Shown one piece after another: positions 11,842 to 41,845 of a DNA stretch of 64,000 nt. The first letter of the stretch is position 1. The number at the start of each line of letters is the position of its first letter. The notes below the pieces were generated by a model. The model was not told the DNA's origin, made no database searches, and saw only the letters and a list, made by a program, of their open reading frames with translations. The translations under genes and the position numbers were made by a program. The DNA comes from Polyangiales bacterium (GTDB lineage Bacteria > Myxococcota_A > Polyangia > Polyangiales > Ga0077539). The DNA lies in NCBI GenBank assembly GCA_046351515.1, contig JAXLYJ010000005.1, forward strand, positions 50,892 through 114,891. The letters run 5' to 3'.

Positions 11842-11993
11842 CACATCTTCGGCACGTCTCGGCATGAAGTGACGCAAGAGTTCGCGTGTTCAGGGCTCAG
11901 TCTTGCCTCGCAGTTGCCTAGGAAATTCTCGAACGAAAACGAAGTTGAGTCGTTGACGGCGCGCCGTGTCGTGAACGAGAGTGGCACACAACG

Positions 11994-14603: not shown

Positions 14604-17555
<2,952 letters not shown>

Positions 17556-22541: not shown

Positions 22542-25195
22542 ATGACAGACGAACGAAGCAACGCAGGGGAGAGCAGTGGCAGCGGCGCAGCGGCGCCCAT
22601 CCCTGTGGTGTTCGAAGAAGAAGTGCAGCGCAGCTACCTCGACTACGCGATGAGCGTGATCGTAGGCCGCGCGATCCCCGACGCGCGCGACGGGCTCAAG
22701 CCCGTGCATCGGCGGATCTTGTACACGATGGAGCAGCTGAACCTCGCGCCCGGCGGCAAGTTCGTGAAGTGCGCGCGCGTGGTCGGAGACGTGCTCGGAA
22801 AGTTTCACCCGCACGGCGACTCGAGCGTGTACGACGCGCTCGTCCGCATGGCGCAGGACTTCTCGATGCGCATGCCGCTCGTCGACGGCCAGGGAAACTT
22901 CGGCTCGGTCGAGGGTGATCCCGCCGCTGCGTATCGTTACACCGAGTGCAAGCTCACGCGGATCGCTGAAGAAGTCCTGCGCGACATCGACAAGGACACC
23001 GTGGACTTCTCGCCGAACTACGACGGGAGCACGGAGGAGCCCGATGTGCTTCCGGCGCGGTTTCCGAACCTGCTCGTGAACGGCACCAACGGCATCGCCG
23101 TGGGCATGGCGACGAACATTCCTCCGCACAACCTCACGGAGGTCATCGACGGGACGCTTCACGTCATCGACCACCCCGAGTGCAACGTCGAGGACCTGCT
23201 CCCGTTCGTGAAGGGCCCGGATTTTCCCACGGCGGCGTCGATCCTCGGCACCGAGGGCGTGCGCAAGGCGTACCTCACGGGGCGCGGGACGATCACGATG
23301 CGCGCGAAGGCCGACATCGAGACGTTCGGCAAGGACCGCGAGCGCATCGTCATCACCGAGATCCCCTATCAAGTGAACAGCGCGAAGCTGCTCGAGCACA
23401 TGGCCGAGCTCGTTCGCGAGAAGAAGATCGAGGGCGTCTCGACCTGCGCAACGAGAGCTCGCGCGAGGGCATGCGCATCGTCGTCGAGCTCAAGCGCGAC
23501 GCGGTCGCTCAAGTGGTCCTCAACGCGCTCTACAAGCAGACGCAGCTGCAAGAGAACTTCGGCTACATCGCGCTCGCGATCGTCAACGGTCAGCCGCGCG
23601 TGCTGGATTTGAAGCAGCTGCTCTCGGTGTTCATCGAGCACCGACGGGACGTCGTCACGCGTCGCACGCGCTACGAGCTTCGCAAGGCCGAAGGCGAGCG
23701 CGAGATCGTCCTCGGCTTGGGGATGGCGACGACCGAGATCGACCTCGTGATCGCCACGATCCGCAAATCGCCTGATCCCGAGGCGGCCAAAGAAGCGCTC
23801 ATGGCGCTGCCGCTCAAGGGGCTCGAAGAGTTCGTTCGTCGCGCGGGCAGGCCCGAGCACGAGATCGCCGAAGCCGCGAAGGTCACGGACTATCGGCTCA
23901 CCGAGCGTCAGGCGAAGGCCATCTTGGACATGCGCCTGGCCAAGCTCACGGGCCTCGAGCAAGAGCAGCTCGCGCAGGACTACGGCAAGCTCTCGGAGAT
24001 CATCGCGTGGCTCAAGAGCATCCTCGGCGACGAGGGCGTGCTGCTCGGCGTGATCAAGAAAGAGCTCACGGACATCCGCGAGAAGTACGGCGAGGCGCGA
24101 CGCACGTCGCTCGAGCTCATGGACGGAGAGATCTCGATGGCCGACCTCGTGCCCGAGCACGAGGTGGTCGTCACGCTCTCGCACAAGGGCTACATCAAGC
24201 GCACGTCGCTCAGCGATTATCGCGCGCAGAATCGCTCGGGTAAGGGCAGCTCGGGCATGGACGTGCGCGACGAAGACTGGGTGCACCAGATCTTCGTCTC
24301 GAGCTCGCACGACTCGATCTTGTTCCTCACGGACACGGGCAAGGCGTTTACGAAGAAGATCTACGAGCTGCCCGAAGCCGCGCGCGCCTCGCGCGGAAAG
24401 GCGATCGTGAACTTCCTCGGCCTCGCGGACAGCGAGCGCGTCGCGGTGGCGCTTCCCGTCAAAGAGTTCAAAGAGGGCTTGGACCTCGTCACGTGCTCGA
24501 AGAAGGGCCTCGTCAAGCGCACGGACCTCACGGCGTACGGCAGCATTCGTCAGACGGGCATCATCGGCGTGGCGATCGACGAGGGCGACGAGCTGCTCAC
24601 CGCCATCGTCGTCTCGCCCGAGCGCGAGGTGATCATCGGGACGCGCAAGGGCATGAGCATTCGCTTCGCCGCGAGCGAGATTCGTCAGGTCGGCCGCGAC
24701 TCGCGCGGCGTCAAGGGCATCGAGCTGCGCGAGGGCGACGCGGTCGTCTCGCTGCGCGTCGTCGAAGATCCCGCGACGCAGCAGGTGCTCGCGGTCTGCG
24801 AAAAGGGCTACGGAAAGCGCACCGAGAGCGCGGAGTTTCGCAGCCAGGGCCGCGGAGGACTCGGCATCATCGCGATCGACGCCTCCGAGCGAAACGGCGA
24901 CGTGGTGGACATCGTGCTCGTCCGCGAGGGCGATCAGCTCATGGTGGTCACGGACAAGGGCCAGATGCTGCGCACGTTCGTCTCGCAGGTGCGGCTCGCG
25001 GGCCGCAACACGCAGGGCGTTCGCATCATCGACGTCAACGAGGGCGAGAAGGTCGTCGCGATCGAGCGCGTCGAGGTCGTCACCGTGGAGGGCGAGCCGC
25101 GACCGAGCTTGAGCCCGACGGACTCCGCGGCTTCTGGTGATGCGGGCGCGCCGACGACGCCGGCAGAGCCGAGCGAACCGGCGACGGACGCTTGA
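22542..25195 (+). CDS. gyrA: DNA gyrase subunit A
   Basis: [26 protein letters not shown], active-site Tyr region, QRLTGLE-like motifs and C-terminal beta-pinwheel repeats. One frameshift near 23450 joins ORFs 22524..23612 and 23180..25195. Acidic C-terminal tail. Confidence 0.95.
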
Positions 25196-26275: not shown

Positions 26276-26869
26276 ATGAACCACGGTTCAGCGAACGGAG
26301 ACCGCTCGGTGCGCGGTGCGCGCGCGCAGGCGCTGCTCGACGGCGTGATGGCGCGGCTCGAGGCTCGCGGCGTCGAGCTCGTGTACAAGAGCGACTCGTG
26401 GTTTCAGCGCGCGATCGATCGAGCGCTGCGCGTGCTCACGTTCGGCGCGATGAGCTCGTACCTCTCGGGCTACGTGACGACCATCGGACGGACGATCTAC
26501 CTGCCCGATGACTGGGAGCTGACCGCGCCGGGGCGTCGGTGGGAGACGCTCGAGCACGAGCTGGTGCACGTCGGGCAGTTCGAGCGCTACGGGTTCGTGG
26601 GGATGGCGGTGCTCTACCTGCTCGTTCCGCTGCCGATGGGGCTGGCGTGGTTTCGCGCGCGGCTCGAATGGGAGGCGTATCGGGTGACGATCCGGTGCGT
26701 GGCGGAGCTCGAAGGGATCGAAGCGGCGAGGGACCGGTCGTTTCGCGAGGAAATCGTCCGGCGATTCACGGGGCCGGACTACGGGTACATGTGGCCGTTT
26801 GCGCGTTCGGTGCATCGATGGATCGAGGGAGAACTCGCGACCATCGAGCGCTCGCACGCGGTACATTGA
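26276..26869 (+). CDS. hypothetical HExxH-motif protein (putative zinc metallo-hydrolase)
   Basis: LEHELVHVGQFERYGF contains HEXXH in a context resembling small predicted metallopeptidase families. Ends 11 nt before the Hsp70 start. Confidence 0.4.
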   Translation: MNHGSANGDRSVRGARAQALLDGVMARLEARGVELVYKSDSWFQRAIDRALRVLTFGAMSSYLSGYVTTIGRTIYLPDDWELTAPGRRWETLEHELVHVGQFERYGFVGMAVLYLLVPLPMGLAWFRARLEWEAYRVTIRCVAELEGIEAARDRSFREEIVRRFTGPDYGYMWPFARSVHRWIEGELATIERSHAVH

Positions 26870-26880
26870 AGGTGAGAGAG

Positions 26881-29800
26881 ATGACTAACCCGATCGCGGT
26901 CGGAATCGATCTGGGAACGACGAACTCCGTCGTCGCCGTCGCGCAAGGCGGACAGCCGCGCGTGCTCACGACTCCCGAAGGGGTCGGCCTGATCCCGAGC
27001 GTGGTGTCCTTCGCTGCGAACGGTCAGACGCTCGTGGGCGCGCCCGCGCGCGCGGCGCGCACAGTGGATCCCGAGAACACCGTGTTCTCTGTGAAGCGCT
27101 TGATGGGCCGGCCGTTCGACTCGGAAGAAGTGCGTCGCGCCGCCGCTCGCTTCGCGTTTCAGCTCGAGCGCGGCCCCGATCAATCGGTCTTGGTTCGCAC
27201 TCGCGCGGGCACGCACACGCTGCCCGAGCTGAGCGCGCTCGTCCTTCGCGAGGTGCGTCGCGTCGCCGAAGCCGCGCTCGGTCAGCCCATCGGGCGCGCG
27301 GTGATCACGGTCCCGGCCAACTTCAACGAGCTGCAGCGCAGCGCCACGAAGCTCGCCGGGCAAATCGCCGAGATCGACGTCGCGCGCATCTTGAACGAGC
27401 CGACCGCCGCCGCGCTCGCCTACGGCTACGGCCGCGGGACGCGCGAGCGCATCGCGGTCTTCGACTTCGGCGGCGGAACGTTCGACGTCACGCTGCTCGA
27501 GCTGTCGGGCAACGTGTTCGAAGTGCTCGCCACCGCAGGGGACACCTTTCTTGGTGGCGACGACATCGACATCGCGCTCGCCGAAGGCCTCGCGGACGGA
27601 GCTTCCAAAGCCCTGCGTTTCGACGCGCGAAAAGACCGCCGCGCGTACGAGCTGCTCCGCGCTGCCGCCGAGCAAGCGAAGATCGACCTCTCGACGCTCG
27701 AGAGCGCGCAGATCAAAGTGCCCAACATCGCGCAGGGGCCTGGCGGTCGAGCGTTGGAGTTTCGCTCGCGCATCGCTCGGTCTGAGTTCGAGAAGGTCGC
27801 GCAGCCGTTTGTGCAGCGAACGATCGACGTGTGCGCCGAGGCGCTCAAGCTCGCGGGCCTGCGCCCCAACGACTTCGCCGCGGTGATCCTGGTCGGTGGT
27901 TCGTCGCAAATCCCGCTCGTTCGCCGGGCGGTTCGCGATTTCTTCCGCAGCGAGCCGCACACTTCTCTTCCGCCCGACACGGTCGTCGGGATGGGCGCCG
28001 CGGTGCTCGCCGAGGCGCTCGGCGGCAAGCGCACGAAGATCACTGGGCAGACGCGCGCGAGCAAATCTCCTTCGGGCGCTCCTCCTTCTGCTTCGCAGAA
28101 CGCGCCCGCGTCGCCGTCGCAAGCGCCGATGTCTGCGGCGGTCGCGGGGCCCATTCCTGCGCCGCCGCTCGCTCCGCACGTGAGCCTCTCGGACGCCGCG
28201 ATGCCCGCGGTTCGACCACCGCAGCAGCCGCTCGCGCCGCCACCTCCGCCACCCCCTCCGATGATGGGAGGCGCCGATCTTCCCGCGGTGTCCGTGAGCA
28301 GCGCTGCGCTGCCGGCGGTCGCTGGCCCTCGTCCAGCGGGGCGCGCGCCGATCAACCGCGGAGCTCCTGCGGCTCCGCCGCCACCGCCGCCGGTCGCGAT
28401 CGCGTCGAGCGAGCCGACCAACGCCTCGGTGACGGGGTTGCCCGCGCTCAAGGCGACGGGTCGAGGCGTGGGCGGCGCGATGGCGCCACCGCCACCACCA
28501 CCGCCACCGCCGTTGCCTCCGATGGCTCCAGACTTCGGCGCGCACTCGGTCTCGGATCTGCCTGCGCTCAAGGGTGCGGGGCTTCCTGCGGTGCCGAAGG
28601 GCGGGCCGATTCCGAGCACGCTGTCGACCGACGGCTTGCCCGCGGTGAAGATCAACGAGAGCGTTGCGGCGTTGCCTGCGGTCGCGCTTCCAAGTGGAGC
28701 TCCTGCGGTGCGTCCGCGCACGTCGACCGAGCCGCACGGCGTGACGAAGCCGAGCTCACCGTCGGACCACGCGATGCCTGCGGTGCGACAAGAGCCCGCG
28801 CCGCCGTCCGCTGGTGCGCCGATGCCCGCGCCGCGGATGCGCACGCGAACGATCACCCATGCGAGCGCGGCGGTTCCGCCGCCCGCGCCGCTTCCGCCGC
28901 CGGGGGCTGCGCTGCCTGGAGCTCCGCCCGCATCGTCGATCGTCCCGCCCAAGCCCGGCGATCTCTCGTGGGCGTCGAGCCAATCGCAGCCGTCGATCTC
29001 CGTGAACCCGTCGTCGATCGTGCCGCTCGATGATGACGATGGCGTGGATCTTCCCAGCATTCCTCGCAGCACAGGAAAGTCCATCCCGGTCGGTCCCGAG
29101 CTCGACGACGCGTTCGGCGACGAGCCAACGGCGATGCACAGCGGCGCGTTGCTCTCGGGCGCGTTGGCCGCGAAGACGGTCCCCAACATCGCGAGCTCGA
29201 CCGACCTTCCGATGCTCTCGCAGAAGGTCGAATCGAAGATCCCGACGCTCACCTCGGTCGACGCTTCGAGCGTCGAGATCCCTGATCGCTTCAAGGCTCC
29301 GCAGGGCTCGCACATCCCGACGCAACCCTCGATTGGGCCGAACGTTCTCGGCTCGATGAAGGGGGCGGCAGACGCGCCGCCCGAGGGCGTCACGACGCTC
29401 AAGCGCATCTCGACGCTCATCGAGGACGCGGACGAGCCCGATCTTCCGGTGCCTTCGGCGCCGAAGGCCGCGCCGATCTTCGGCGGGCAGGCGATTTCGG
29501 TGCCCACGCCGCCGGTGCCTCAGCCTCCGCCCGCGCCCGCGGGGCCATCGGTCAACCCGATGGCCGCAGGGCGTCGCACCGCGGTGATGGCTGCCGCTCC
29601 GCCTCCGCCTCCGCCTCCGATGCCGAGCGCCGCGATGGCGCCGCCGTTTCCGCCGATCGGAGCTGCTCCGCCGCTGCCGCCGGCGCCGCCCCCCATCGCA
29701 TACGCGCCCGATCCCCAGTTCGGCGACCCGTCGTTGCTCACGTCGATGAAGGGCCTGAGCGACACGGACCTGGGATTCGACGCTCCATTGCCGCCTCCGC

Positions 29801-30432
29801 CTCCGCCGGTGCCGCCGGCGATCACGACGGCGCCGATGGGGACCGTCACTGCGCCGAGCGCCGTTCCGAACAGCGCGGGGCACTACGCTCCGCCCGCGTG
29901 GAACCAGCCGCCGATGCCGGCGCCGCCGATGCCGATGCCGCAAGCGCCACAAGTGTCGCAAGCGATGCCGCCGCTCGTGACACCGCAACAGCCGCCGCCT
30001 GCGCCGTCGGTGCGCATGCAGGCGCCGTTGCTGCTCGACGTGACGCCGCAGAGCCTTCGCGTCGAGACCGTGGGCGGGCTGAGCCAGCTCGTGATCGCGC
30101 GCAACTCGACGATCCCGCTCGAGCAGACGCGAGAGTTCGCGACGGCGTACGACAATCAGCAGGACGTTCGCATTCGCATCGCGCAAGGAGAGCAGGCGAA
30201 ATTCGGCGAGAACCAGCCGCTCGGCGAGCTCGAGCTCACGGGCCTGCGTCCTGCGCCGCGCGGCGACGTCAAGATCGCCGTCACCTTCGAGCTCGACGCC
30301 GACGGAACGCTCCGCGTCCGCGCCGAAGACATGCTCACAGGCGCGCAGACCACGGCGCGCATCAACCTTCTCACGATGCCCGGCGGCAACGCGCAAGCGT
30401 CGGCGATGGCCGCGCGTCAGCGAGGGGCGTAG
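26881..30432 (+). CDS. atypical Hsp70/DnaK-family ATPase with a ~690-aa proline-rich low-complexity insertion between NBD and SBD-beta; no helical lid
   Basis: N-terminus VGIDLGTTNSVVAV, phosphate-2 DFGGGTFDVTLLEL, and ILVGGSSQIPLVR form an actin-like NBD (~400 aa). Then PPPPPPP tracts with recurring [DG]LPA[VL] and MPAVR motifs. Then LLLDVTPQSLRVETVGG...VTFELDADGTLRV, a canonical SBD-beta. RBS ggtgagagag before the ATG at 26881. Confidence 0.8.
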   Translation: MTNPIAVGIDLGTTNSVVAVAQGGQPRVLTTPEGVGLIPSVVSFAANGQTLVGAPARAARTVDPENTVFSVKRLMGRPFDSEEVRRAAARFAFQLERGPDQSVLVRTRAGTHTLPELSALVLREVRRVAEAALGQPIGRAVITVPANFNELQRSATKLAGQIAEIDVARILNEPTAAALAYGYGRGTRERIAVFDFGGGTFDVTLLELSGNVFEVLATAGDTFLGGDDIDIALAEGLADGASKALRFDARKDRRAYELLRAAAEQAKIDLSTLESAQIKVPNIAQGPGGRALEFRSRIARSEFEKVAQPFVQRTIDVCAEALKLAGLRPNDFAAVILVGGSSQIPLVRRAVRDFFRSEPHTSLPPDTVVGMGAAVLAEALGGKRTKITGQTRASKSPSGAPPSASQNAPASPSQAPMSAAVAGPIPAPPLAPHVSLSDAAMPAVRPPQQPLAPPPPPPPPMMGGADLPAVSVSSAALPAVAGPRPAGRAPINRGAPAAPPPPPPVAIASSEPTNASVTGLPALKATGRGVGGAMAPPPPPPPPPLPPMAPDFGAHSVSDLPALKGAGLPAVPKGGPIPSTLSTDGLPAVKINESVAALPAVALPSGAPAVRPRTSTEPHGVTKPSSPSDHAMPAVRQEPAPPSAGAPMPAPRMRTRTITHASAAVPPPAPLPPPGAALPGAPPASSIVPPKPGDLSWASSQSQPSISVNPSSIVPLDDDDGVDLPSIPRSTGKSIPVGPELDDAFGDEPTAMHSGALLSGALAAKTVPNIASSTDLPMLSQKVESKIPTLTSVDASSVEIPDRFKAPQGSHIPTQPSIGPNVLGSMKGAADAPPEGVTTLKRISTLIEDADEPDLPVPSAPKAAPIFGGQAISVPTPPVPQPPPAPAGPSVNPMAAGRRTAVMAAAPPPPPPPMPSAAMAPPFPPIGAAPPLPPAPPPIAYAPDPQFGDPSLLTSMKGLSDTDLGFDAPLPPPPPPVPPAITTAPMGTVTAPSAVPNSAGHYAPPAWNQPPMPAPPMPMPQAPQVSQAMPPLVTPQQPPPAPSVRMQAPLLLDVTPQSLRVETVGGLSQLVIARNSTIPLEQTREFATAYDNQQDVRIRIAQGEQAKFGENQPLGELELTGLRPAPRGDVKIAVTFELDADGTLRVRAEDMLTGAQTTARINLLTMPGGNAQASAMAARQRGA

Positions 30433-30434
30433 CC

Positions 30435-30956
30435 GTGCAGAGCGAGTCCGAGCGTCGCGCGCAGTTCGACCTCGTCCGCGAGCAGCTCGACGACCTCGAC
30501 TACTACGCGGTGCTCGGCGTCGCGAAGAGCGCGAGCGCCGAGCAAATCCGCGATGCGTTTCACGAGTTCGCGCTGCTCTTTCATCCCGATCGATACGTCG
30601 ACGACGAGGCGACGCAGCGGCAAGCGCTGCATGTGTTCAAGCGCGGCAGCGAGGCGTATCGGGTGCTGACCAACACGGTCTTGCGGGCGCGCTTCGATCA
30701 GGCGCGCGCGCGCGGCGCGCTGCGGTTGAGCGCGGACGAGATGTTCGCGGGCGTCGATTCAGCGAGCGGCGCCGTCGCAGAGATTCCGCTGCCTCCCGCG
30801 GCGCAAGCGCTGTTCGACAAGGCGACGCAAGCGCTCGAGCGAGGGGACATCAACAACGCCAAGATGCACCTGATGCTGGCGCGCGCGAAGGCGAGCTCGC
30901 CGCGATTCGACGTGCTTCAAGCGCGCATCGACGAAGCGACGTCTCGCAAGCGCTAG
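30435..30956 (+). CDS. J-domain protein (DnaJ-like co-chaperone; J domain only)
   Basis: DYYAVLGVAKSASAEQIRDAFHEFALLFHPDRY has the HPD tripeptide. The GTG start is 3 nt after the Hsp70 stop. ~173 aa. Confidence 0.75.
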   Translation: MQSESERRAQFDLVREQLDDLDYYAVLGVAKSASAEQIRDAFHEFALLFHPDRYVDDEATQRQALHVFKRGSEAYRVLTNTVLRARFDQARARGALRLSADEMFAGVDSASGAVAEIPLPPAAQALFDKATQALERGDINNAKMHLMLARAKASSPRFDVLQARIDEATSRKR

Positions 30957-31162
30957 AGCGCCGCCCGGTTGGAAGGCAGACACGCCACGAGCGATCTGCT
31001 GGGAAAGATCCCGAGCCATCTCGTCGCGTGTCGCCAACCGAAGGCGGAGCCGCTGTCGCGCGCCGCCCGGTTGGAAGGAAGACACGCCACGAGCGATCTG
31101 CTGGGAAAGATCCCGAGCCATCTCGTCGCGTGTCGCCAACCGAAGGCGGAGCCGCTGTCGTG
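30957..31162. repeat. tandem pair of 102-bp palindromic repeat units (family A, locus 1) filling a convergent intergenic gap
   Basis: Unit cgccgcccggttggaagg[c/a]agacacgccacgag...gggaaagatccc...ctcgtcgcgtgtcgccaaccgaaggcggagccgctgtcg, repeated with period 102 (30959 and 31061). Arms ggttggaagg.agacacgcc.cgag / ctcgtcgcgtgtcgccaacc are imperfect reverse complements. Begins 1 nt after the TAG of the J-domain gene. Confidence 0.85.
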
Positions 31163-31185
31163 GCGCGGCGGTCCGTCGGCCGCGC

Positions 31186-33119
31186 TCAGCCTGGCGCTGT
31201 TGCGGGCAGAAGCTTCTTCGCTGCTTCGGCGATCGCTCGCGCGTCGTCGTCGCGACCGAGCGCGCGATAGAGCGACGAGAGGAGCGAGAGCGCCGCGGCT
31301 TCGCCGACGGAGTCGTTGCGCTGGCGAGCGATGGCGAGCGCGAGCAACGTCGATCGAACGGCGCGCGGCGCGTCTCCGCTGGAGGCCTGCGCGAGCGCGG
31401 CGGTGAGCTGCAGCTTCGATGACGACTCGTCGACGGCGGCGCTGGTGGCCGTGAGCTGCACTGCGCGGTGGGAGTTTCCGCGGACGAGCTCGGCGAGCGC
31501 GCGAAGACGGGAGGCTCCGTCGGTGTCGTCGCGGCTCTCGAGCTGCGCGGCCGCGGCTTCGAGCGCGAAGGGATCGAACGTGCGCGCGCGGGACGGCCGA
31601 GCGCGGGCGCCGACCACCTCGAATGTCACCGCGGGGCCGATCGCCGCGAGGGCAGCGCGAATCGTGCTGGCGATCTCGGGTTGATCCGAGTCGCGCGAGG
31701 CGTGCACGAGAAAGCGAAGCGCCGCAGCGGTGGCGCCAGCGTCGAGCGCGGCCCGAGCGGCTTGCGCGAAGGCGAGGGCGGCGTCGCGGGGTCGATCGAC
31801 GGAGAGGTATCGCTCGGCCTGCGCTCCGTGCGCGGCCGCTCCGCACTCGAGCAGTGTGAGCGCGCGTGGATTGGCGCGACCGACCGCGCGGCGCACGGAC
31901 TCGTCGATGCGAATGCGCTCGTCCGATTGGTGCACGAGGGCGAGTCGCGAGAGTCGATCGAGCGCGTCGTCCGGGGCGCCGCTGAACAGCCCGCGCAACA
32001 GGGCGTGGGCGGTCTGCGTCGAGCGCCCGTCGTTGAGCGCGCACACCGCGCGCAGCGCTTCGCGAAGGGACTGCGGCAAATCGTGGATGCGCGCGGCGAC
32101 GGGCTCTTTGGGGCGCGAGGCGGCCTTGAGCGCGCGTCGTGCGCGCAGGGCCCAACCGCCCTCTTCGCGGATGACGGTGCCGAGCTGCACCGCGGCGCGG
32201 ACCGCTTCGACGATGCGGCCTGGCAAGAACTCTCCGCGGCGCGCGAGGACCTTGTCGATCTTGGGGTCGTGCTCGCCTTCGAGCATCGCGCGAACGAGCG
32301 CTCGCGCGTCGTACTCTCGCAGCGGTCCGACGGTGATTCCTTCGGGCGGCGCGCGCAGCGGCAGCGTGAATTCGTCGCTGATGCGGACGATCACCGTGCG
32401 CTTGGAGACGATGCGCTCGATGGCCTTCGCGAAGGTCGCTGCGTGCGCGGCGGGGACGGGGTCCGCGATCACCCACGCTTCAGGGGGGCAGCGCTCGAGC
32501 GCTCGGTCGAGCGCCGAGGGCCCGCCGGCGATGATGTCTCCGGGCAGATAAAACGCTGGCGCTTGCGCGCGGGTCGCCGCCTCTTCGATGAGCCTCGCGG
32601 CGCCTGCGCCCGCGACGGCTTTGACCACCACCGGGCTGCCCCGCTCGATCGCGGTGGTGAGCGCCGAGAGCTCGCGTTGGCGTGCGACGAACACCGGGCG
32701 TTCGGGCAGCGTCGGGACGAGCTCGCGACAGGCGTGCCGATCGGCCGATCGCGGAGCGAGCGCGGCGGACAGGCACGGCAGCGTCCAGTGTTCGCGCGCG
32801 ATGGGGCGCACGAGGACGAGCTCGTGCTCGAGACGAAGCCGCGCGTTGTAGTCGAGCAGCAGCTCGCCGGTCTCTGCAGCGCACGCGAGCGCGGCGGCGC
32901 GCAATCGAGCCTCGGTGGGATCGCTGCCCTCGAGCGCGACCGCGCCCGATAGCCCTTGGTGCATCGTGGGAAGCAAGCGCGCGAGGCGCTCCGCCGCGTC
33001 CGACGGTCGAAGCGTCTCGAACAAGAACGCCTCGAGGCTATCGACCCACCCGCTCGGCGACCCGAGCACGGCGCGCGCCTCGACGAGCGCGTCTTCAGCC
33101 CCCTCAGTGCGACGATCCA
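31186..33119 (-). CDS. large hypothetical protein downstream of pspA; central degenerate P-loop NTPase-like region and C-terminal helical repeats
   Basis: The 772-aa ORF 31186..33504 overlaps pspA out of frame in its first ~125 codons. A plausible TTG/GTG start is ~25 nt after the pspA stop. Contains ...SPVVVKAVAGAGAARL... (glycine-rich loop lacking Lys) and hhhhD AWVIADPV. The C-terminus is Ala/Leu-rich and TPR-like. Confidence 0.45.
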
Positions 33120-33143
33120 ACAATCCATTCTGCGACGAAGAGA

Positions 33144-33826
33144 TTACTTCTTCAGCCGCGCTTTGAGTGCGGCGATCTCGTCGTCCAGCTGATCTTTCTT
33201 CTCGCCCTTCTCGAGCTTGCGAAAGCGGTCCTCGAGGTCGGCCTTCTTCGGGTCGTCGAGCAGGTCGTGGGCCTCGGCCTCGGCCTCGAGATTCTCGATT
33301 TTGTCCTGCATTTCTTTGAGGCGGGCGAGCGCGGGGTGGCGCCGCCACCGGCCTTGTCGTTGAGCGGGTCCGAGCCGGGCGTCGTGCGCGAGCGGGCGAC
33401 GGCGGCGGCGAGCGACGAGCGCTTGGCCTTGAGCTCTTCGACCTTCTTCTCCATGGCCTCGATCGAGGCCTTGATGTCTTCGGCGTACGTGGTCTGTTGG
33501 CCACGCAGGCGATCGGCTTCGACCGCGTCCGCTTCGGACTTCTTCTTGCGGCGCAGCGCTTCGCGAGCGAGCTCTTCGTCGCCGTGCTCGAGGGCCATCA
33601 TGGCCTTGCGCTCCCAGTCCTCCGACTCTTTGACGTGGTCGGCGACCTTGCGCTCGAGCTGCTTGACCGAGGCGAGCGCTTGAACGTGCTCTTGCTTGGC
33701 CTTCTTCAGCTCGTCCTGCATGTCTTCGATCGTCTGGGCGATGACCTTGGCGGGGTCTTCGGCCTTGTCGATCAGGCTGTTTACGTTGGCTTTGAGCGAG
33801 CGAGCGAAGCGGTCGAGGATCCCCAT
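33144..33826 (-). CDS. pspA: phage shock protein A (PspA/IM30/Vipp1 family)
   Basis: MGILDRFARSLKANVNSLIDKAEDPAKVIAQTIEDMQDELKKAKQ...coiled coil, in ORF 33152..33877. After one frameshift near 33380 the C-terminus LARLKEMQDKIENLEAEAEA...ALKARLKK is in ORF 33144..34070. Confidence 0.85.
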
Positions 33827-34084
33827 GTGAGCGACAACCTCCGAAGTCCTTGAGGGAGAGTTGCGAGACTGTAGCACGTTCGTCCGCGGGAACCGTTCGA
33901 TGCTTCTGCCGGCGTTGGCCGCGAGGCCGCGGTGGCTCGCGCGGACGGCGATCCTCGGCGGATTTCGACCGAGCGCGGCGCGTGCTGGCGTTGTGCTGGA
34001 ATTTCAGCGGCGAAATCATCGCCGACCCGCGCACGAGTCGGTATCGCAGGCGCGGCGACTGTGCCATCATCGCGCGCTCTTCAT

Positions 34085-35053
34085 ATGCTCTCAGGACAAA
34101 CCATCTTTCTCACCGGCGGCGCGGGCTTCATTGGCACCAGCCTCGTGCGACGTCTCTGCGAAAACAACACCTGCGTTGTGTACGACCTGCTGCGCCGCAA
34201 CGCGCTCGCGGCGGCGGGGTTGGACAAGCACCCCAACGTCAAGCTCATCCAAGGCGACGTTCGCGACTACAACGCGATGGCCGAGGCGATGAAGGGCGCT
34301 GACTACGTCGTGCACCTCGCCTCGATCGCCGGCGTCGACACGGTGTTGAAGAACCCGGTCCTGACGATGGAGATCGCGCTCGAAGGCACGGTCAACGCCC
34401 TTCGCGCCGCGCAGAAGCAGGGCGGCTGCAAGCGCTTCGTGGACTTCAGCACGTCCGAGGTGTTCGGCACGCACGCGTATCGCGTGAGCGAAGCGGACCC
34501 GACGAAGCTCGGCGCCGTCGGCGAAGCGCGGTGGACGTACGCGGTCGCCAAGCTCGCGACCGAGCACCTCGCGCACAACTATCACAAGCAGTACGGGCTC
34601 CCGACGGTCAGCATTCGCCCGTTCAATATCTACGGGCCGGGGCAGGTCGGCGAGGGTGCGGTGCACGCGTTCGTGACGCGCGCGATCAAGAACGAGACGA
34701 TCAAGATCCACAACGACGGCGATCAGATCCGCGCGTGGTGCTACATCGATGACATCGTCGACTCGATCCTGCTCTGCATGGAGAAGGAAGAGGCCGTCGG
34801 CCAGGCGTTCAACATCGGCAACGCGCGCTCTTCGGTGACGATCTACCAGCTCGCGCGGCTCGTCGTTCGCCTCGCCGAATCGCGCTCGCCCATCGAGTTC
34901 GTCCCGTGGAACTTCGCCGACGTCGAGCTGCGCATCCCCGACACGCGCAAGGCTCACGACCTCCTTGATTTTCGCGCGCAGGTCGACCTCGAGGACGGCC
35001 TGCTTCGCACGATCGCCTGGTATCGCGAGAAGCTCGCGCGCGAAGGGGTCTGA
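34085..35053 (+). CDS. NAD-dependent epimerase/dehydratase (GalE/UDP-sugar epimerase-like SDR)
   Basis: Rossmann motif FLTGGAGFIGTSL and catalytic YAVAKLATE (YxxxK). 322 aa. Divergent from pspA. Confidence 0.85.
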   Translation: MLSGQTIFLTGGAGFIGTSLVRRLCENNTCVVYDLLRRNALAAAGLDKHPNVKLIQGDVRDYNAMAEAMKGADYVVHLASIAGVDTVLKNPVLTMEIALEGTVNALRAAQKQGGCKRFVDFSTSEVFGTHAYRVSEADPTKLGAVGEARWTYAVAKLATEHLAHNYHKQYGLPTVSIRPFNIYGPGQVGEGAVHAFVTRAIKNETIKIHNDGDQIRAWCYIDDIVDSILLCMEKEEAVGQAFNIGNARSSVTIYQLARLVVRLAESRSPIEFVPWNFADVELRIPDTRKAHDLLDFRAQVDLEDGLLRTIAWYREKLAREGV

Positions 35054-35056
35054 GGA

Positions 35057-36429
35057 GTGCTCGATCGCGACGAACGTCGACTCGACCTGTCCGCCGCCCG
35101 CGCTGACGGTTGGTACGAGCGCGTCGTCGCGAGCTTCGCGCCGCTCGAACGGCTCGCCAACTACCTGGGCGACGGCCTCGTCGCGCTCGCGCTCAGCGCG
35201 GGGTTTCGCATCGGCGCAGTACAGTCGGACAAGCTCGCGGGCACCGTCTCCGAGCTGACCTGGAGCCGCCAGCTTCAGCCGATCGACAGCCCCGAGCAAG
35301 CGAAGATCGAGCTCGGCGCGGACGTCACGCGCGGCTCCGTTGCTTCGCTTCGAACCGCGGTGCTCGCCGCGCTCGTCGGCGACTCGGAGCCCACTGCCAC
35401 CTTGCCCGACGACGGCGAGCCCGATCCTGAGGCGCTGCGCGCGTTCATCGGGCATCGGACCGTGCTGCTCGCGCCGCTGTTTGGCCTGAGCTTGAGCGAG
35501 CTTCGGCTCAGCAACGGCGACGCGCGAGTGGCCGTCGCGCACGATGGAATCGAAGAGGTCGTCGCGCTCAAGCAGCTCCGACGCTTTCTTCGTCAGCGCG
35601 TGGTCGAAGTGCTGCAGGGCGACACCGGGCGCGGGCAGGTCGCCATCGAGCTCGCTCAAGCGGACCTCGCGCGCAGCGCGCTCGACGCGGGCAGGCCCGA
35701 AGAGTCTGTCGCGCGGTTGATTTCGTGGCTCGCGCCGCTCTCGGTGTTTCATCGAACCGCCGAGGGACAAGCGCTCGACCGCGCCACGCGCGCGCTCGGC
35801 TCGCGCGCGCGCTCGGCACGCTCGCCGAGGCGTTTACGCGGCTCAATCGCCTCGACGAGCGCAACGAGGTCCTGCGGCTGTCTCTGCAGTACGCGCTCGA
35901 CGGCGAGGCCGCGCCCGAGCTGTACCTCGCGCTCGCGCGCGCCATGCTCGACGAGAAGCGCGAGCCCGAGGCGATCGGCCCGCTTCGTCGCGCGCTCGCC
36001 CTCGGCGCTGATGAGCTGCGCGTGCTCCCGCTGTTGGGCGTGGCGTTCGCTCGCTCGGGGCGCCTCGTCGCCGCTCTCGGTTGCGCGCGTGCGTTGCGCT
36101 CGAAGGGCGCCGCCGACGCTGCGCTCGACAAGCTCGTTCGCGACGCGCTCGGGCCCGCGGCGGACGAGTTCGAGCACTGGGTCGAGCGCGGTCAGCTCGC
36201 AGAGAAGACTGCGACGATGGCCGCGTTGGTCCTGGATGAAGCGATTCAGCGCAGCGATGCGCTCTCGTCGCGCGAGGCGAGCGTCATCGAGCCCGGCGAC
36301 GAAGAGACCACGCAGATCGCGCTCCCGCCTGCGGCGCCGGAGGACACCGCGATCGATCAGCCGATCGCCGCGATCGCCGCGATCGTCGACGCGCAAAACG
36401 GCTCGTCCGACGGATCGTCGGAGGGCTAG
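35057..36429 (+). CDS. hypothetical alpha-helical (TPR-like) protein; GTG start 1 nt after the epimerase stop; one frameshift ~35800
   Basis: ORFs 35057..36667 (N-terminal part) and 35725..36429 (C-terminal part: LALARAMLDEKREPEAIGPLRRALALGADELRVLPLLGVAFARSGRLVAALGCARALRSKG, TPR-like). Acidic tail. Stop TAG at 36427-36429, directly followed by repeat locus 2. Confidence 0.4.
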
Positions 36430-36640
36430 AGCGGAGCCCGGTTGGAAGGAAGACACGCCACGAGTCATCTCCGGGAAAAGATCCCGAGAGACCTCGTCGC
36501 GTGTCGCCAACCGAAGGCGGAGCTGCTGTTGTGCGGAGCCCGGTTGGAAGGAAGACACGCCTCGAGTCATCTCCTGGAAAAGATCCCGAGAGACCTCGTT
36601 GCGTGTCGCCAACCGAAGGCGGAGCGGCTCTACCGCAGCA
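36430..36640. repeat. tandem pair of 102-bp palindromic repeat units (family A, locus 2) filling a convergent intergenic gap
   Basis: gagcccggttggaaggaagacacgcc[a/t]cgagtcatctcc[g/t]ggaaaagatcccgagagacctcgt[c/t]gcgtgtcgccaaccgaaggcggagc, repeated with period 102 (36434 and 36536). Same arms and orientation as locus 1; the loop region differs. Bounded by the TAG at 36429 (+ gene) and the TAG (reverse complement) at 36630 (- gene). Confidence 0.85.
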
Positions 36641-36935
36641 GTCGACACCCCTCGCGCTGCGAGATGAAGCGGGCGCGGGCGCCCCACGCGAGCACCGCTT
36701 GCGCCTCGACCTCGCGGCGCTCACGGTCGACGCGCACCGTGCGCAGGTTGGGGCTCGCCCTGGTAAATCGCAGGCAAAACTGCTCGTCTTTGTGCATCAC
36801 GAACACGCACGAGCACATTTCTTTGGCCGCGTACGACGTGAGCAAGGCGAGGTCGTGATTGTTGTACGGACGCGGATCACCAGGGCACGCCGCGAGCGTC
36901 GCCCCTGCGATCAACGTGAGCAACGCGCGCTTCAT
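36630..36935 (-). CDS. small hypothetical lipoprotein (101 aa)
   Basis: RBS GGAGGTGG then MKRALLTLIAGATLAACPG lipobox. Cys-containing ~80-aa mature part. Its ATG overlaps the stop of the upstream beta-lactamase-family gene. The rest of the 820-aa ORF 36630..39092 is wrong-frame junk. Confidence 0.45.
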   Translation of the reverse strand: MKRALLTLIAGATLAACPGDPRPYNNHDLALLTSYAAKEMCSCVFVMHKDEQFCLRFTRASPNLRTVRVDRERREVEAQAVLAWGARARFISQREGCRLLR

Positions 36936-38086
36936 CGGGCCACCTCCATCGCGAGGTTGACGAACCGCGCGAACTCGAAGACCCGCTCGCGATCGTCCGC
37001 GAGGCGCACGATCACCAGGTCTCGCGACGGAATCACGGTGATCGACTGCCCCCAGTGTCCGCGCGCCGCAAACGCGTCTTCGGGAACGCCTGGCCACGGC
37101 GTGCTGACGCCCTGCTCGGGGATCGGCTTGTTGAGCCAGAACTGTCTCCCTTGGACGTCGTCGGGGTCCGCGTCGAGCCTGCGCAAGCGGATCGCGGGGT
37201 TGACCGCGGTCGAGTCGGACACCCAGCGTTCGGGCAGGATTCGCTCGTTGTTCCAACAGCCGTCGCGCAAGAGAAAGTAGCCGAAGCGCGCGTAGTCGCG
37301 GGGCGTCGCGTACCACCAGGACGAGCCGATCGGCGTGCCGGTCACGTCTCGCTCGATCGTCGCGCTGGTGATTCCGATGCGATCGAACAGCCTGCGCCAC
37401 GGATAGTCCGGGTCTTCTCCCGCCGCAGTAAACGCGCGGTCGACCGCGCGAGAGAGCACGTTGGTGTCGCCCGACGAGTACATGTACGTCGTCCCGGGAG
37501 CGTCCCTGAGCGGGTGGCTCGCGACGAACGTCGCCGCGTCCGCGCTGCCCACGCCGTACAGCATCGCGAGCACCGAGCTCTCTTGGTTCGACGCGTTCTC
37601 GTAGCTCTCGCGCCAGTCGAATCCCGTGGAAAATTCCAAGGTGTTTCGGATTGTCACAGGGCACTGCGTCGTGCGCAGGTACGGCATCCACCGGCAGATC
37701 GAGTCGTCGATCGTGAGGTAGCCGCGGCCGACGGCGATGCCCGTGAGCGTGTTCATCAAGCTCTTGGTCATGCTCCACGCGTAGTGCGGCTGCTCGGCGG
37801 TCCAGCTGCGCGCGTAGCGCTCGTAGATGAGCTGGCCGCGATGGACGATGAGAACGGCGTCCGTGCGAATCCCCAGGCGTTCGTCGTCTTCGCCCGTGAG
37901 CGTGAACGCGTACTGCTCGAGCGCCGCGATCTCGGCCGCGCGCTGCGCAGAGACCTCCGCCGCGCGCGAGGGCCACTCGACGTTCGGGTACGCGACGTTG
38001 GACGGGCACGAGCTCTGCGCGGACGCCGCTGCGGCAAATGAGAGCGTCGCCAGCAGGCTCACCGTCGATGCGATCGTTGATTTCAT
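36932..38086 (-). CDS. secreted serine hydrolase of the beta-lactamase/transpeptidase fold (class C / esterase-like)
   Basis: Signal peptide MKSTIASTVSLLATLSFAAAASA. SxxK motif in AWSMTKSLMNTLTGIAV; later YSSG (YxN-like) and HWGQ elements. 384 aa. Confidence 0.8.
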   Translation of the reverse strand: MKSTIASTVSLLATLSFAAAASAQSSCPSNVAYPNVEWPSRAAEVSAQRAAEIAALEQYAFTLTGEDDERLGIRTDAVLIVHRGQLIYERYARSWTAEQPHYAWSMTKSLMNTLTGIAVGRGYLTIDDSICRWMPYLRTTQCPVTIRNTLEFSTGFDWRESYENASNQESSVLAMLYGVGSADAATFVASHPLRDAPGTTYMYSSGDTNVLSRAVDRAFTAAGEDPDYPWRRLFDRIGITSATIERDVTGTPIGSSWWYATPRDYARFGYFLLRDGCWNNERILPERWVSDSTAVNPAIRLRRLDADPDDVQGRQFWLNKPIPEQGVSTPWPGVPEDAFAARGHWGQSITVIPSRDLVIVRLADDRERVFEFARFVNLAMEVAR

Positions 38087-38785: not shown

Positions 38786-38922
38786 TGTGTCGCGCAGCCG
38801 GCGTCGTTGGAAGGCTCGCGTTGCGCGCGAGAGCATCACGCAGCGCCGAGAACCGGCCCGCCCGCGAATCGAGGGCGATGCCGTCGGTGGCGTCACTGGC
38901 GGCGCCCGTGCTTGTGCGCTGC

Positions 38923-39367
38923 AATGGGAGCGATGGCTGCTCGATCGAGGTTGTTGCGTTGGGCGTGGACGTGGGTCGCTCCGCTCGTGCTGCCGTGGGC
39001 GCTTCTGTTCGCCGCGGTGGCATGGCCGCCTGGGGCGCCGATTCCGCGGCGCTCGATCCCGACGGAGGCGCGTCACGCCGACCGCTGCACATGGGCGTGT
39101 CACAACCGCGGGTGCTCGCATCGACCCGCGCTGCCTGCGGTGATCACCGACGATCGGTACGTCTTCGGCGCGACGATCCGCGCGCTGTACGCGCTCGGGA
39201 CGCTGTTCTCGCGCGACCGATTTCGCGGCTACGGGATCGCCAACATCCTCGTCTTCTGCCTCGCGTGGCCTGCGCTCATGTACGCGCTCTGGGTCTCGGC
39301 GTGGCGCCAGCGCTTTCGCGTCAGCGCGCTGCGCGCGGCGCTCGCCGCGAAGGGAGCGCAGCGGTGA
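38923..39367 (+). CDS. hypothetical small membrane protein
   Basis: MGAMAARSRLLRWAWTWVAPLVLPWALLFAAVAW...ILVFCLAWPALMYALWVSAW. Several TM helices. No family recognised. Confidence 0.3.
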
Positions 39368-39564
39368 TCGACGCGATCGGCGTGGGTTTGTATGCGGCGT
39401 GCGTGGACTTCATGATCCGCTTCGCGAACGCGTTGCATATGACGTATCGAGACGCGAACGCGCTCTTGTTCTTCGTGCTGTGGCCGATCGTGACCGTCGC
39501 GTTGGCGCTCATGTGTTGGCGGCAGGCGCGCGAGATCGAGCGCCTCGAGCGCGAGCTGCGCTGA
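39364..39564 (+). CDS. hypothetical small membrane protein (66 aa)
   Basis: The GTG overlaps the previous stop. VIDAIGVGLYAACVDFMIRF...LLFFVLWPIVTVALALMCW: two TM helices. Confidence 0.25.
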   Translation: MIDAIGVGLYAACVDFMIRFANALHMTYRDANALLFFVLWPIVTVALALMCWRQAREIERLERELR

Positions 39565-41845
39565 TCAGAGCGCGTCGATCGCGGCGAGCGTTCGCTCGGT
39601 GACGGCGTCGATCAGGGAGGCTCCGCCCATCCGTCGAAGCTCCGCGGGATGACCCAGCGGCGCGAGCAGGCTCGTCCCCGCGCCGAATCGAGCCCACGGT
39701 TCGACGACGGTCTCGACGGGGAGCCACGCGACGATCTCGGGATCGCACGCCGTCGCGGTGGTCCGCAGCGATCGATAGCCGGCGGTGATCCACGGCGAAG
39801 CCCTGTCCTTGGCCTCGTCGCTGACCAACGGCCACAGTCGCGAGGCGTGCTCGATGGCCTCTCGCGTCGCGAGCGCCGCGCCCCAGCCGAACATCGCATC
39901 GGCCACAGAAAACGCACGTGCTTCGGCGGTGAGCTCCCACCGCATTCGATCGAGGGCGGCTCGCGAACGAGCTCTTCGAGCGATCGGTCTGCGCCCTGTG
40001 CGAGCTCGATCAGCGCCATGGTCAGCGTCCCGCGCGGAACGAACCCGAGCGTTCGTCGCAATCGCGCTGCGCCCGCTCGCAGCGCCTCGACGGCGAGCGC
40101 GCCGCTCGTCTGCAGCTCTTTGCAACGGACGATCAACGCGTGACCGAGCCACCACTCGCCGAGGCGCTCTTGCAGCGCGATCGCGCGATCGAGCGCCTGC
40201 GCGTCGGCGAAGCGCAACAGCTCGGCGAGCGAAGCGCGTTGCTTGTTCACCGCGTCGCGATCCGCCTCGAACATCGCGTCGATCGCCGCCGTGGCGCAGC
40301 GCGCGAGCAGCGAGCGACCCAACGCGAAGCGCCGCGCGTGCGCCACGAGGACCGGGGTAGGCGGGTCGGTCCACCACGACGGCTCGTCGCGATTCGCTGC
40401 GTCGTTCATCGCTTCGACGAGCAGCGAGGGCGGAAGGCACGCGCGAGGGGCGCCGTTGGGGTGTCGCGCCCGAAGCCACCGATCGGCGGCGCGGTCATCG
40501 TCGAGCGCCGTCGCGATGGCGAACTGCGTCGCTTCGTCCGCGGGCGCGTCGGGCGTGCGTTGAATACTGGTGCGCGCGAGCCACGCGCGCTCCTCGCTCG
40601 GATCCATGGCGCGAAGGCTCATCGCGAGCACGCGCAGCTCGCGCACCGCGTCCGCGTGTCGCTCGACGAACGCGCGAAGACGGCCCTTCGGCGCGAGCGC
40701 GAGCAACGACGCTGGCTCGAACAGGCCGCGCTCGACGCCGCGCTCGACCGCGGACCACCAGCGCTCGCGCTGCGCCTCTTGGGCGCTGACGACGAGTGCG
40801 CGCGCCGTCGAGCCGAGCTGCCCGAGCACCGCTGCGCTCGGCGCGCCGCGGGACCGAGCGATCAGCGCGCGCAGCTCGTCTTCGCTCGAAGCGCGGTCGA
40901 AGGCGATCCGCTCTTCGGCGCTTCGGCCATCGAGGGCGCGAGCGTCGAGGTCGATTTCGAGCGAGGCGACGCCGAGGCGCGCCGCGAAGTCCCACGCTGC
41001 TTCGGCGGTGAACCGCTGCAGCGCGCGCCCGTACGCGCGCAGTCGAAGCGGCGTCACCCACCGCGGTCGCTCGGTCGGATCGCTCGCTCGCTCGACGATG
41101 CGATCGAGCATCGCGCTCGCCTGCGCGAGCTCACCGACGTGCGCGAGCACGAGCAGGACCGGCGCTGCGGGGTCGTCGCTCGCTTCGTACCAGTCCTCGA
41201 CGAAGCCTGGATCTGCGCGCTCGAGCTCGCTCAGCGTCTGCTCGAGCGCGATGGCGGAGTCCCGAGCGTCGTCTGGCGGAAGCGCGAGCAGCACGCGCGC
41301 CATCCACGCGATCTCATCGCCCGAGCCTGCTTCGTCGACCATCGCGAGCGCGGCGCGCGCCTTGGCTTCGAAGACCGCGGACGAGCGCTCGCCGAAGAGC
41401 ACGTACAGCGTCCCGATCAACGATGGAAGCTCGACGGTGCTGCTCTCAGCGATCTCGATCGCGAGCGAGCGCGCGCGCGGATCGCCCAGCGTCGCGCAGC
41501 GCGCGTGATCCAATCGAGGTCGTCGATCTCGCGTCGGAGCGTCGCGACCACCGCTGCGAGCTGCGATGCATCGCTGAGCCAGCGCATCGCGCTCACCGCC
41601 GCGCGGCGCTCGCTCGGATCGAGGTCCGAGAGCTCTTGCACGGCGCTCTCGACGGACTGAGCGCCCAAGCGCACGCGGGCGAGGCGGACGTGGGGCGCGA
41701 CGGCGCTCGCGTGCGCCGCGCGGACAAACGCGTCGAGGCTCGCGTCGCACTCGTGAAGGAGCGCGTCTCGTCGCTCGGCTTCGCTCGACGCAGAGCGCAA
41801 TCGTTGACGCGCCCGGGCGATTCGCAGCTCGACGGAGTCGCTCAC
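39565..41845 (-). CDS. large hypothetical alpha-helical protein (~760 aa), frameshifted
   Basis: Coding-like segments on the minus strand: 41417..41845 (N-terminus MSDSVELRIARARQRL...), 39612..41750 (bulk) and 39565..40479 (C-terminus ...LIDAVTERTLAAIDAL). Acidic/Leu-rich helical content. No motif recognised. Confidence 0.35.

Follow-up and report, generated by a model that had tools for sequence, protein, structure and literature searches.

Head-to-tail palindromic repeats inserted at CTAG between convergent genes of a Polyangiales bacterium: probably a young miniature inverted-repeat transposable element

Bacterial transposable elements of the miniature inverted-repeat type (MITEs) are ~100-200 bp long, carry terminal inverted repeats, generate target duplications, often have a terminal TA and give rise to long stem-loop transcripts (PMC2229807). 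MITEPsy1 of Pseudomonas syringae pv. phaseolicola, a derivative of the IS5 family, has a length of 100 nt and targets CTAG or YTAA, which becomes duplicated on insertion (PMC3189936). For IS630, the entry for Tenzen & Ohtsubo 1991 in PMC2170065 lists a preference for TA within CTAG; ISY100 duplicates TA (PMC2170065), and RUP, a 107-bp element of Streptococcus pneumoniae, is presumed to be moved to TA targets by IS630-Spn1 (PMC2229807). The Correia/NEMIS elements of Neisseria and the ERIC/IRU elements of enterobacteria, likewise palindromic MITEs, measure 100-155 bp and duplicate TA; they are transcribed together with neighbouring genes as hairpins that affect mRNA processing and stability, and RNase III cuts the NEMIS/Correia hairpins of mRNAs (PMC2229807). 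Here, we analysed a stretch of 64,000 nucleotides from a Polyangiales bacterium, an uncultured myxobacterium from soil (positions 50,892 to 114,891 of contig JAXLYJ010000005.1, GenBank assembly GCA_046351515.1; hereafter the window), in which a non-coding palindromic repeat unit of 100-102 nt is present as head-to-tail pairs in two gaps between convergent genes. We argue that the units probably represent a young, lineage-restricted MITE-type element of ~100 nt plus a TA duplication that inserts at CTAG.

The element in the window resembles MITEPsy1 in being 100 nt long and non-coding, in having terminal inverted repeats and in being present in some strains and absent from others. MITEPsy1, however, has 18-nt terminal repeats starting with GGAAGG and a known parent insertion sequence (IS), ISPsy2, whereas the inverted repeat of the element described here extends over nearly the whole length, the element occurs in head-to-tail pairs, and the two share no sequence similarity. 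With RUP and other IS630-dependent MITEs it has in common the length of ~100 bp, the terminal inverted repeats, the terminal TA, the intergenic location and the predicted long stem-loop transcripts; RUP, however, is present in >100 copies with ends matching IS630-Spn1, whereas the element described here is known from two loci in one 64-kb window. Correia/NEMIS and ERIC/IRU may serve as a functional analogy for the arrays, which have no sequence relation to them and contain neither an IHF motif nor a promoter motif. Repetitive extragenic palindromic (REP) sequences, and the bacterial interspersed mosaic elements (BIMEs) and REPINs formed from them, carry GTAG or CGTC tags, consist of short self-folding palindromes and are associated with RAYT proteins, and head-to-tail dimers are rare among them (PMC3733652); according to PMC3116915 and PMC3337134, a REPIN is a doublet of inverted REPs, of which singlets may be left as remnants. 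Like these, the element consists of extragenic palindromic repeats at the 3' ends of genes and occurs in clusters and as a singlet remnant; unlike them, it has a CTAG target with a probable duplication, and it lacks the tags, the stem and loop dimensions and the self-folding arms. Sequence similarity was found to none of these known MITEs.

The original prediction, which was based on the sequence of the window, described a 102-bp palindromic repeat as tandem pairs in two convergent gaps, and Tandem Repeats Finder, counts of the conserved arms and folding all bore this out. The two pairs, array A (30957-31160) and array B (36430-36633), are separated by 5.3 kb and consist of the following units, for which we also give the coordinates under a model in which TA is duplicated.

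Unit A1, 30957..31058, + strand: element 30956-31055, former TA 31056-31057 now TC.
Unit A2, 31059..31160, + strand: element 31058-31157, former TA 31158-31159 now TC.
Unit B1, 36430..36531, + strand: element 36429-36528, former TA 36529-36530 now TT.
Unit B2, 36532..36633, + strand: element 36531-36630, duplicated TA 36631-36632.

Tandem Repeats Finder reported a period of 102 with 2.0 copies for both arrays, with 99% matches in array A (30958-31160) and 95% in array B (36431-36629). The conserved arms, CCCGGTTGGAAGGAAGACACGCC and CTCGTCGCGTGTCGCCAACCGAAGGCGGAG, each had four exact occurrences in the window, every one of them on the + strand, compared to none in 100 shuffles, and a search of the 64 kb using an nhmmer profile of the four units gave no further copy, not even a weak one. 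Identity per alignment column was 93% among the four units, and the differences were concentrated in the central 28 nt and the linker: units A1 and A2 differed in 2 of 102 columns, units A2 and B1 did not differ in columns 7-35 and 64-94, which are the arms (0 differences in 60 nt between loci), and of the ten differences between the A and B types in the paired region (columns 2-94) eight were in the central 28 nt and two in the outermost stem. Identical arms of 29-31 nt around a divergent centre are the pattern that would be expected if the arms were transposase-binding ends.

Short-read contigs of other samples (three other runs; L008, L011, L012 and L021) reach into array B from its left and its right, agree with the window in sequence and stop within the array, as would be expected for a tandem repeat. 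Because these contigs carry the identical sequence from both sides, array B is no artefact of long-read assembly; that it holds two copies is taken from the window alone. The single-base details of array A, which has no short-read support, call for caution. Open reading frames (ORFs) called through the arrays had already been suspected to be just the translated repeat. In agreement with this, protein searches returned no real homologues: in the +0 frame an exhaustive HMMER search of the translated repeat gave three genuine repeat proteins and nothing else (one HEAT-like, one thrombospondin-type and one ankyrin-like), which matched by chance, and in the -1 frame a protein search gave no match.

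Genes were called from a plot of the codon-position G+C content together with Pfam scans. The genes and sites that adjoin the arrays are the following.

J-domain (DnaJ) protein gene, 30435..30956, + strand: Pfam PF00226, E 1e-14, supported by the frame plot; the stop adjoins array A.
CTAG target of locus A, 30953..30956, + strand: TAG 30954-30956 is the stop of the J-domain gene; L009 has CTAG without the element.
GC hairpin of 7 bp, 31163..31185, no strand assigned: GCGCGGC-9 nt-GCCGCGC, separating array A from the TCA stop, outside the repeat.
Gene for a protein of ~647 aa, 31186..33129, - strand: convergent on array A, no Pfam match; the L009 orthologue has 647 aa.
Gene for a 456-aa protein, 35057..36429, + strand: no Pfam match; the stop adjoins array B.
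CTAG target of locus B, 36426..36429, + strand: TAG 36427-36429 is the stop of the 456-aa gene; empty in L025.
Gene for a 101-aa lipoprotein, 36630..36935, - strand: convergent on array B; the stop is within the last 4 nt of the inserted block.

As predicted, both arrays lie in convergent gaps and start 1 nt past the TAG stop codon of a + strand gene. The accompanying claim that both end at the stop of the - strand gene held for array B, in which the CTA of the lipoprotein stop (36630-36632) is inside unit B2, but not for array A, which ends 25 nt short of the TCA stop (31186-31188); the 7-bp GC hairpin that occupies this space is probably the original 3'-end hairpin of gap A.

The tetranucleotide CTAG was observed 7 times in the window, compared to 184 times expected from the base composition (positions 11918, 18622, 20891, 30953, 36426, 43543 and 61317, several of which look intergenic by their coordinates). 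Two of these seven stand immediately before the arrays, both in the same register, for which the chance probability is about (7/64000)^2. In L025, a contig of a close relative, gap B is an empty site that reads GGG-CTAG-CGCAGCAG, with both convergent stops within this CTAG. Because the empty site retains CTAG, this motif belongs to the target and not to the element. In the alignment of gap B, L025 has ...GAGGGCTAGCGCAGCAGTCGAC..., and the window has ...GAGGGCTAG[36430-36633, 204 nt]CGCAGCAGTCGAC...; the 204-nt insert ends with CTAC, so that CTA or TA is repeated at both ends. A duplication of 4 nt meets a mismatch, with G in the empty site and C in the window after the second CTA, which is a synonymous difference (CGC to CGG) affecting the final codon, for Arg, of the lipoprotein gene; overall, the duplication at B is compatible with 2, 3 or 4 nt. 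If TA is what was duplicated, the element measures 100 nt, begins with G-AGCG and ends with GCT-C, the outer termini of array B are inverted (GAGC.../...GCTC), and the inserts of both arrays are exactly 204 nt long. The ends of the element can be written as GAGCG(C/G)..CCCGGTTGGAAGG or as GAGCG(C/G)(C/A)GCCCGGTTGGAAGG. Judged by these junctions, the element targets CTAG, and CTA or TA was probably duplicated at B. The position of the arrays directly after stop codons, a feature that the original prediction recorded without linking it to CTAG, is best explained by insertion at CTAG.

Syntenic loci from other assemblies were fetched using exact matches of the lipoprotein and the members of its gene cluster. 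They compare with the window as follows.

L013-L019 and L022-L024, 80-86% identity: gap B of 4-8 nt, no element.
L013, L014 and L018: gap A of 9-15 nt, no element; J-domain gene replaced by another gene.
L025, ~90-91% identity, third-position divergence 18.5%: gap A of 6 nt with a TGA stop; in gap B, the two stops overlap in a single CTAG.
L009, ~91-92% identity, third-position divergence 15.6%: gap A of 43 nt, CTAG present, no element; in gap B, TAG-AAACG, then the right arm CTCGTCGCGTGTCGCCAACCGAAGGCGGAGC, then AGCG-CTAC-CGCA.

By this polymorphic presence among relatives, both arrays are insertions. The remnant in gap B of L009 consists of the right arm only and is identical at 31 of 31 positions to unit B1 (P about 0.005) and at 30 of 31 to unit B2 (P about 0.035), compared to the third-position divergence of 15.6%. 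Because L009 shares with the window the right junction CTAC-CGCA and the right arm, the insertion at B predates the split between the two. It likely took place once L025 had branched off, in an ancestor shared by the window lineage and L009, and L009 likely lost about 165 nt later by a deletion reaching from the left junction into the last unit. Gap A was likely colonised in the window lineage only. In gap A, L009 keeps 24 nt homologous to the GC hairpin region of the window. At 15592-15634 of L009, we observed a related CCGCCG...CGGCGG hairpin together with 19 unrelated nt at the place where the window has array A. An exact look-up of the J-domain protein of the window in other samples gave no record.

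In total, the insertion polymorphism, the association with CTAG, the inverted-repeat architecture and the exact 204-bp insert, all of which were observed directly, together with a size, inverted repeats, terminal TA and long stem-loop transcripts that fit published bacterial MITEs (PMC2229807), lead us to favour, as the probable explanation, a MITE-type element inserting at CTAG. The element would be a small non-autonomous DNA transposon with an imperfect terminal inverted repeat across almost its full length. A DDE transposase with its gene in another part of the genome would move it, the class of which we infer to be either IS630/Tc1-like, with the TA within CTAG being duplicated, or IS5-like, with CTAG being duplicated; the size of the duplication would differ accordingly. 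With few CTAG targets left in the genome, insertions would go mostly to stop codons at gene ends in which C precedes TAG. Since the element has G...C ends and TA would be duplicated, CTAG would be rebuilt at both junctions, so that the upstream gene would keep its TAG and, at B, the convergent gene would gain a TAG of its own on the other strand. The rebuilt CTAG would be a new target beside the element, and either a second insertion or slippage between the duplicated junctions may then have given the head-to-tail pair. The period of 102 bp is 100 plus 2, because a TA duplication adds 2 nt to a 100-nt element.

Several observations weigh against this explanation. A clean duplication is seen at one place, the right end of array B; the inner junctions and the right end of array A read GTCG (twice in A) or GTTG (in B) and not CTAG, so that two changes would be needed at each, one of them a C-to-G change shared by both arrays. 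Moreover, gap A has no clean empty-site counterpart, in that L009 has the 19 unrelated nt there, and the right boundary of array A was therefore fixed by the repeat period. A multi-copy family is not in evidence: among all the sequence examined, there are only two loci (four units) and one remnant, and a search of 185,579 reference genomes and of JGI metagenomes using the pattern GGTTGGAAGGN{40,70}GCCAACCGAAGG gave 4 and 3 stretches, respectively, all of which by alignment resemble the element in the exact pattern alone and are chance matches; a looser pattern might find diverged copies. Viral contigs, plasmids and phages were also searched for the repeat, and nothing was found. Neither a transposase nor an IS with matching ends was found in the window or the related loci, and Pfam scans of about 40 ORFs of the window gave no transposase, integrase or Y1_Tnp domain. 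Finally, the units of one pair are closer to each other than to those of the other locus. Because the similarity within pairs exceeds that between loci, each pair formed locally, by duplication or conversion, and not by two independent arrivals; this agrees with the original prediction, in which the repeat family was thought to duplicate locally. As a separate observation, two of the chance pattern matches, L001 594-678 and L003 1985-2069 (Cyanobacteriota/Cyanobium metagenome-assembled genomes (MAGs)), are homologous to each other over ~85 nt (GGGTTGGAAGGTCGGGGCCGTCGATCGCCCCCGG...GGGGCCAACCGAAGG) and unrelated to the element.

Next to a mobile element, a host-selected RNA module has to be considered, in which the hairpins are kept as bidirectional insulators of transcript ends, as mRNA stabilisers or as small RNAs derived from the 3' untranslated region, and mobility is secondary. 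The hairpins are indeed very stable. On either strand, every unit folds as one long interrupted hairpin in which the arms pair over about 33 bp. As RNA, array A had a folding energy of -125.6 kcal/mol on the + strand compared to -106.8 +/- 4.8 kcal/mol for shuffles (z -3.9), and a z score of -5.05 on the - strand; single units as RNA had -42 to -54 kcal/mol (A1 -49, B1 -48.4 and B2 -41.8), and single 100-nt elements as single-stranded DNA had z scores of -2.9 to -5.0 (A1 -5.0). Besides this stability on both strands, such a module is favoured by two convergent gaps being exactly filled, by a geometry that makes co-transcription with both flanking genes unavoidable, by arms without a difference between loci and by the conservation of the remnant arm in L009.

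The variation among the units, however, does not point to selection on the structure. Of the 33 pairs, 27 were invariant in the four units, no pair had changed on both sides, and in the two outer helices all variable pairs deviated only through broken pairs; a check for covariation in the stem, to which the original prediction had pointed, thus came out negative. Unit B2 has three derived substitutions, of which A31T and G44T are recent and pair-breaking and the third is in an existing mismatch (strain-level comparison), and it has lost about 6.6 kcal/mol relative to B1. The central 28 nt of B1, the most complete palindrome of the four units, were more stable than all 1500 shuffles, whereas the centre of A2 was no better than shuffles, 24% of which were equally stable. 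The A-type and B-type centres differ at 8 of 28 positions and pair in different registers. In simulations, 1.1% of random mutants of A2 with eight substitutions matched the stability of B1, while 28% of such mutants of B1 matched that of A2; as this outcome depends on the assumed direction of change, we dropped the idea that compensatory change in the centre reflects selection on structure. On the simplest reading, B1 is near to what was originally a full-length palindrome, and in the A variant this has partly decayed.

Other evidence also speaks against a module maintained by the host. The same gaps have no element in relatives of ~90% identity and in all more distant ones, in which it is thus not needed. 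Scans of 30500-37100 with the consensus gave no sigma-70-like promoter, and a terminator scan gave no site with a hairpin plus a T run in either array, there being no T or A run beside the hairpins; consequently, the proposed bidirectional intrinsic terminator was not supported. Rfam searches of the whole window at gathering thresholds and of array A at E<=10 gave nothing, and array B had only chance-level scores of 12-15 bits compared to gathering scores of 33-140. With the absence from ~90% relatives and the lack of a promoter, of an Rfam match and of covariation, we also abandoned the suggestion of a conserved small RNA or riboswitch-like family. As for the arm in L009, the remnant folds no better than shuffles (z -0.13); because it does not fold, its conservation does not come from RNA structure, and conversion by other copies in the genome would account for it just as well. 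Altogether, we consider a host-selected RNA module unlikely.

In a variant of this idea, for which we see quite a low probability, the arms evolve more slowly than synonymous sites, even in the half-deleted remnant of L009, because the arm is a bound or processed site, such as a signal for protein binding or RNA processing where convergent genes end, and the element is a domesticated insulator module for 3' ends in Polyangiales; its CTAG-regenerating ends would let it separate overlapping convergent stops and harm neither gene. For the MITE-type element that we favour, an effect on the neighbouring genes is also predicted. The 3' ends of the convergent transcripts would include the arrays, one strand each, with the base of the hairpin 1-4 nt past the stops, and, by analogy with REP and NEMIS elements, such a hairpin should slow 3'-to-5' exonucleases and limit read-through towards the opposing gene. 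The hairpin might also disturb terminating ribosomes: Liang, Rudd and Deutscher reportedly described in 2015 that REP hairpins less than ~15 nt from the stop codon stall terminating ribosomes in Escherichia coli, and the arrays here resemble these hairpins in their proximity to stop codons.

A local event without a transposase is likewise quite improbable. Here, an array would have been copied across 5.3 kb by template switching or ectopic conversion on GCTAG microhomology, followed by slippage. In favour of this, the two loci are the only ones known and lie near each other, GCTAGAGCG is common to the left junctions of both, and the identity within pairs shows that local duplication or conversion occurs. 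However, a spacing of <=5.3 kb for two loci in 64 kb is expected by chance in about 16% of cases by our own estimate, and the differences between A and B at 8 of 28 central and 2 outer-stem positions next to identical arms fit subfamilies of a dispersed element better. Moreover, such an event leaves unexplained how the first copy arrived precisely at CTAG with a 3-nt repeat at its other end.

The original prediction had also considered the repeats to be REP/BIME-like. On such a reading, each unit would be a doublet of inverted REPs moved by a single-copy RAYT (a Y1 tyrosine transposase) and the pairs would be BIME-like clusters; although the unit has about the length of a REPIN, forms a long extragenic hairpin at gene 3' ends, is clustered and has left a singlet-like remnant of the right arm in L009, we regard this as very unlikely, because there is no terminal GTAG or CGTC tag and stem and loop sizes are unlike those of these families (criteria of PMC3733652), the right arm has one CGTC, but no stem of 8-9 bp with a loop of 4-5 nt comes after it, the arms are not palindromes of 20-40 nt and do not fold in isolation, the CTAG target with its probable duplication indicates a DDE and not a Y1 enzyme, head-to-tail pairs are rare or absent among REP dimers, and no Y1_Tnp domain was found in the window, although a single-copy RAYT could be encoded elsewhere in the genome.

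Further candidates were rejected: an integron attC site (no RYYYAAC/GTTRRRY core sites, no integrase), a retron msr/msd (reverse transcriptase gene not seen close by), type III antitoxin repeats (toxin gene lacking), the Pxr small RNA (no Rfam match), a composite transposon bounded by the arrays (the 5.3-kb interval is syntenic in relatives without arrays) and a signal for stop-codon recoding after UAG, for which the +0 frame does stay open and continues the frame of each upstream gene, but close relatives lack the element and the extension has no homologue.

The remaining genes near the arrays are the following.

Hsp70-like gene, 26866-30432, + strand.
PspA gene, between the arrays, - strand.
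NAD-dependent epimerase gene, between the arrays, + strand.
Beta-lactamase-family hydrolase gene, beyond the lipoprotein gene, - strand.

The window has a G+C content of 68.8%, and the rest of it encodes housekeeping functions (argH, rpoN, murJ, enolase, gyrA, CstA, RNase II-like and RtcB/RtcR). The Hsp70-family protein has a proline-rich region of ~700 residues between the Pfam-matched N-terminal domain and the C-terminal end; the pair of Hsp70-like and J-domain genes is kept in L009 and L025, and more distant relatives have a different gene there. The enolase-domain ORF (15810-17555) has an N-terminal extension of ~160 residues ahead of the enolase domain and contains a 12/24/48-bp tandem repeat at 16010-16117. 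A segment of ~3 kb (38820-41824), which holds a 633-aa ORF without a Pfam match (39612-41513, - strand), is absent from the close relatives L009 and L010; comparable ORFs of 734-780 aa are present in the distant relatives L013, L014, L018 and L022, which points to a lineage-specific deletion in L009. Several genes are frameshifted (33100-33900, 35057-36429, 17609-18519 and 23471-25195): the PspA frame changes near 33350, the 456-aa gene is split near 35700 and intact as P0020 on a sister contig, the N terminus of the 647-aa protein (MDCWIVALRG) is in another frame, and the gyrA, EamA and kinase genes are fragmentary. These split genes look like indel errors of a long-read MAG and not like biology.

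In total, the repeats look like an ordinary kind of bacterial repeat and not like a conserved RNA gene, and they point to no new class of mechanism. In practical terms, the arrays break short-read assemblies, as in the four short-read contigs that end inside array B, and yield spurious ORFs, and should be masked in annotation. If the units are a CTAG-targeting MITE, a MITE family would be added to a poorly studied, uncultured myxobacterial lineage. Moreover, avoidance of a tetranucleotide would steer a target-specific transposon, in that purging of CTAG would leave stop codons consisting of C and TAG as the main landing sites, and an element with G...C ends would rebuild the stop codons that it interrupts.

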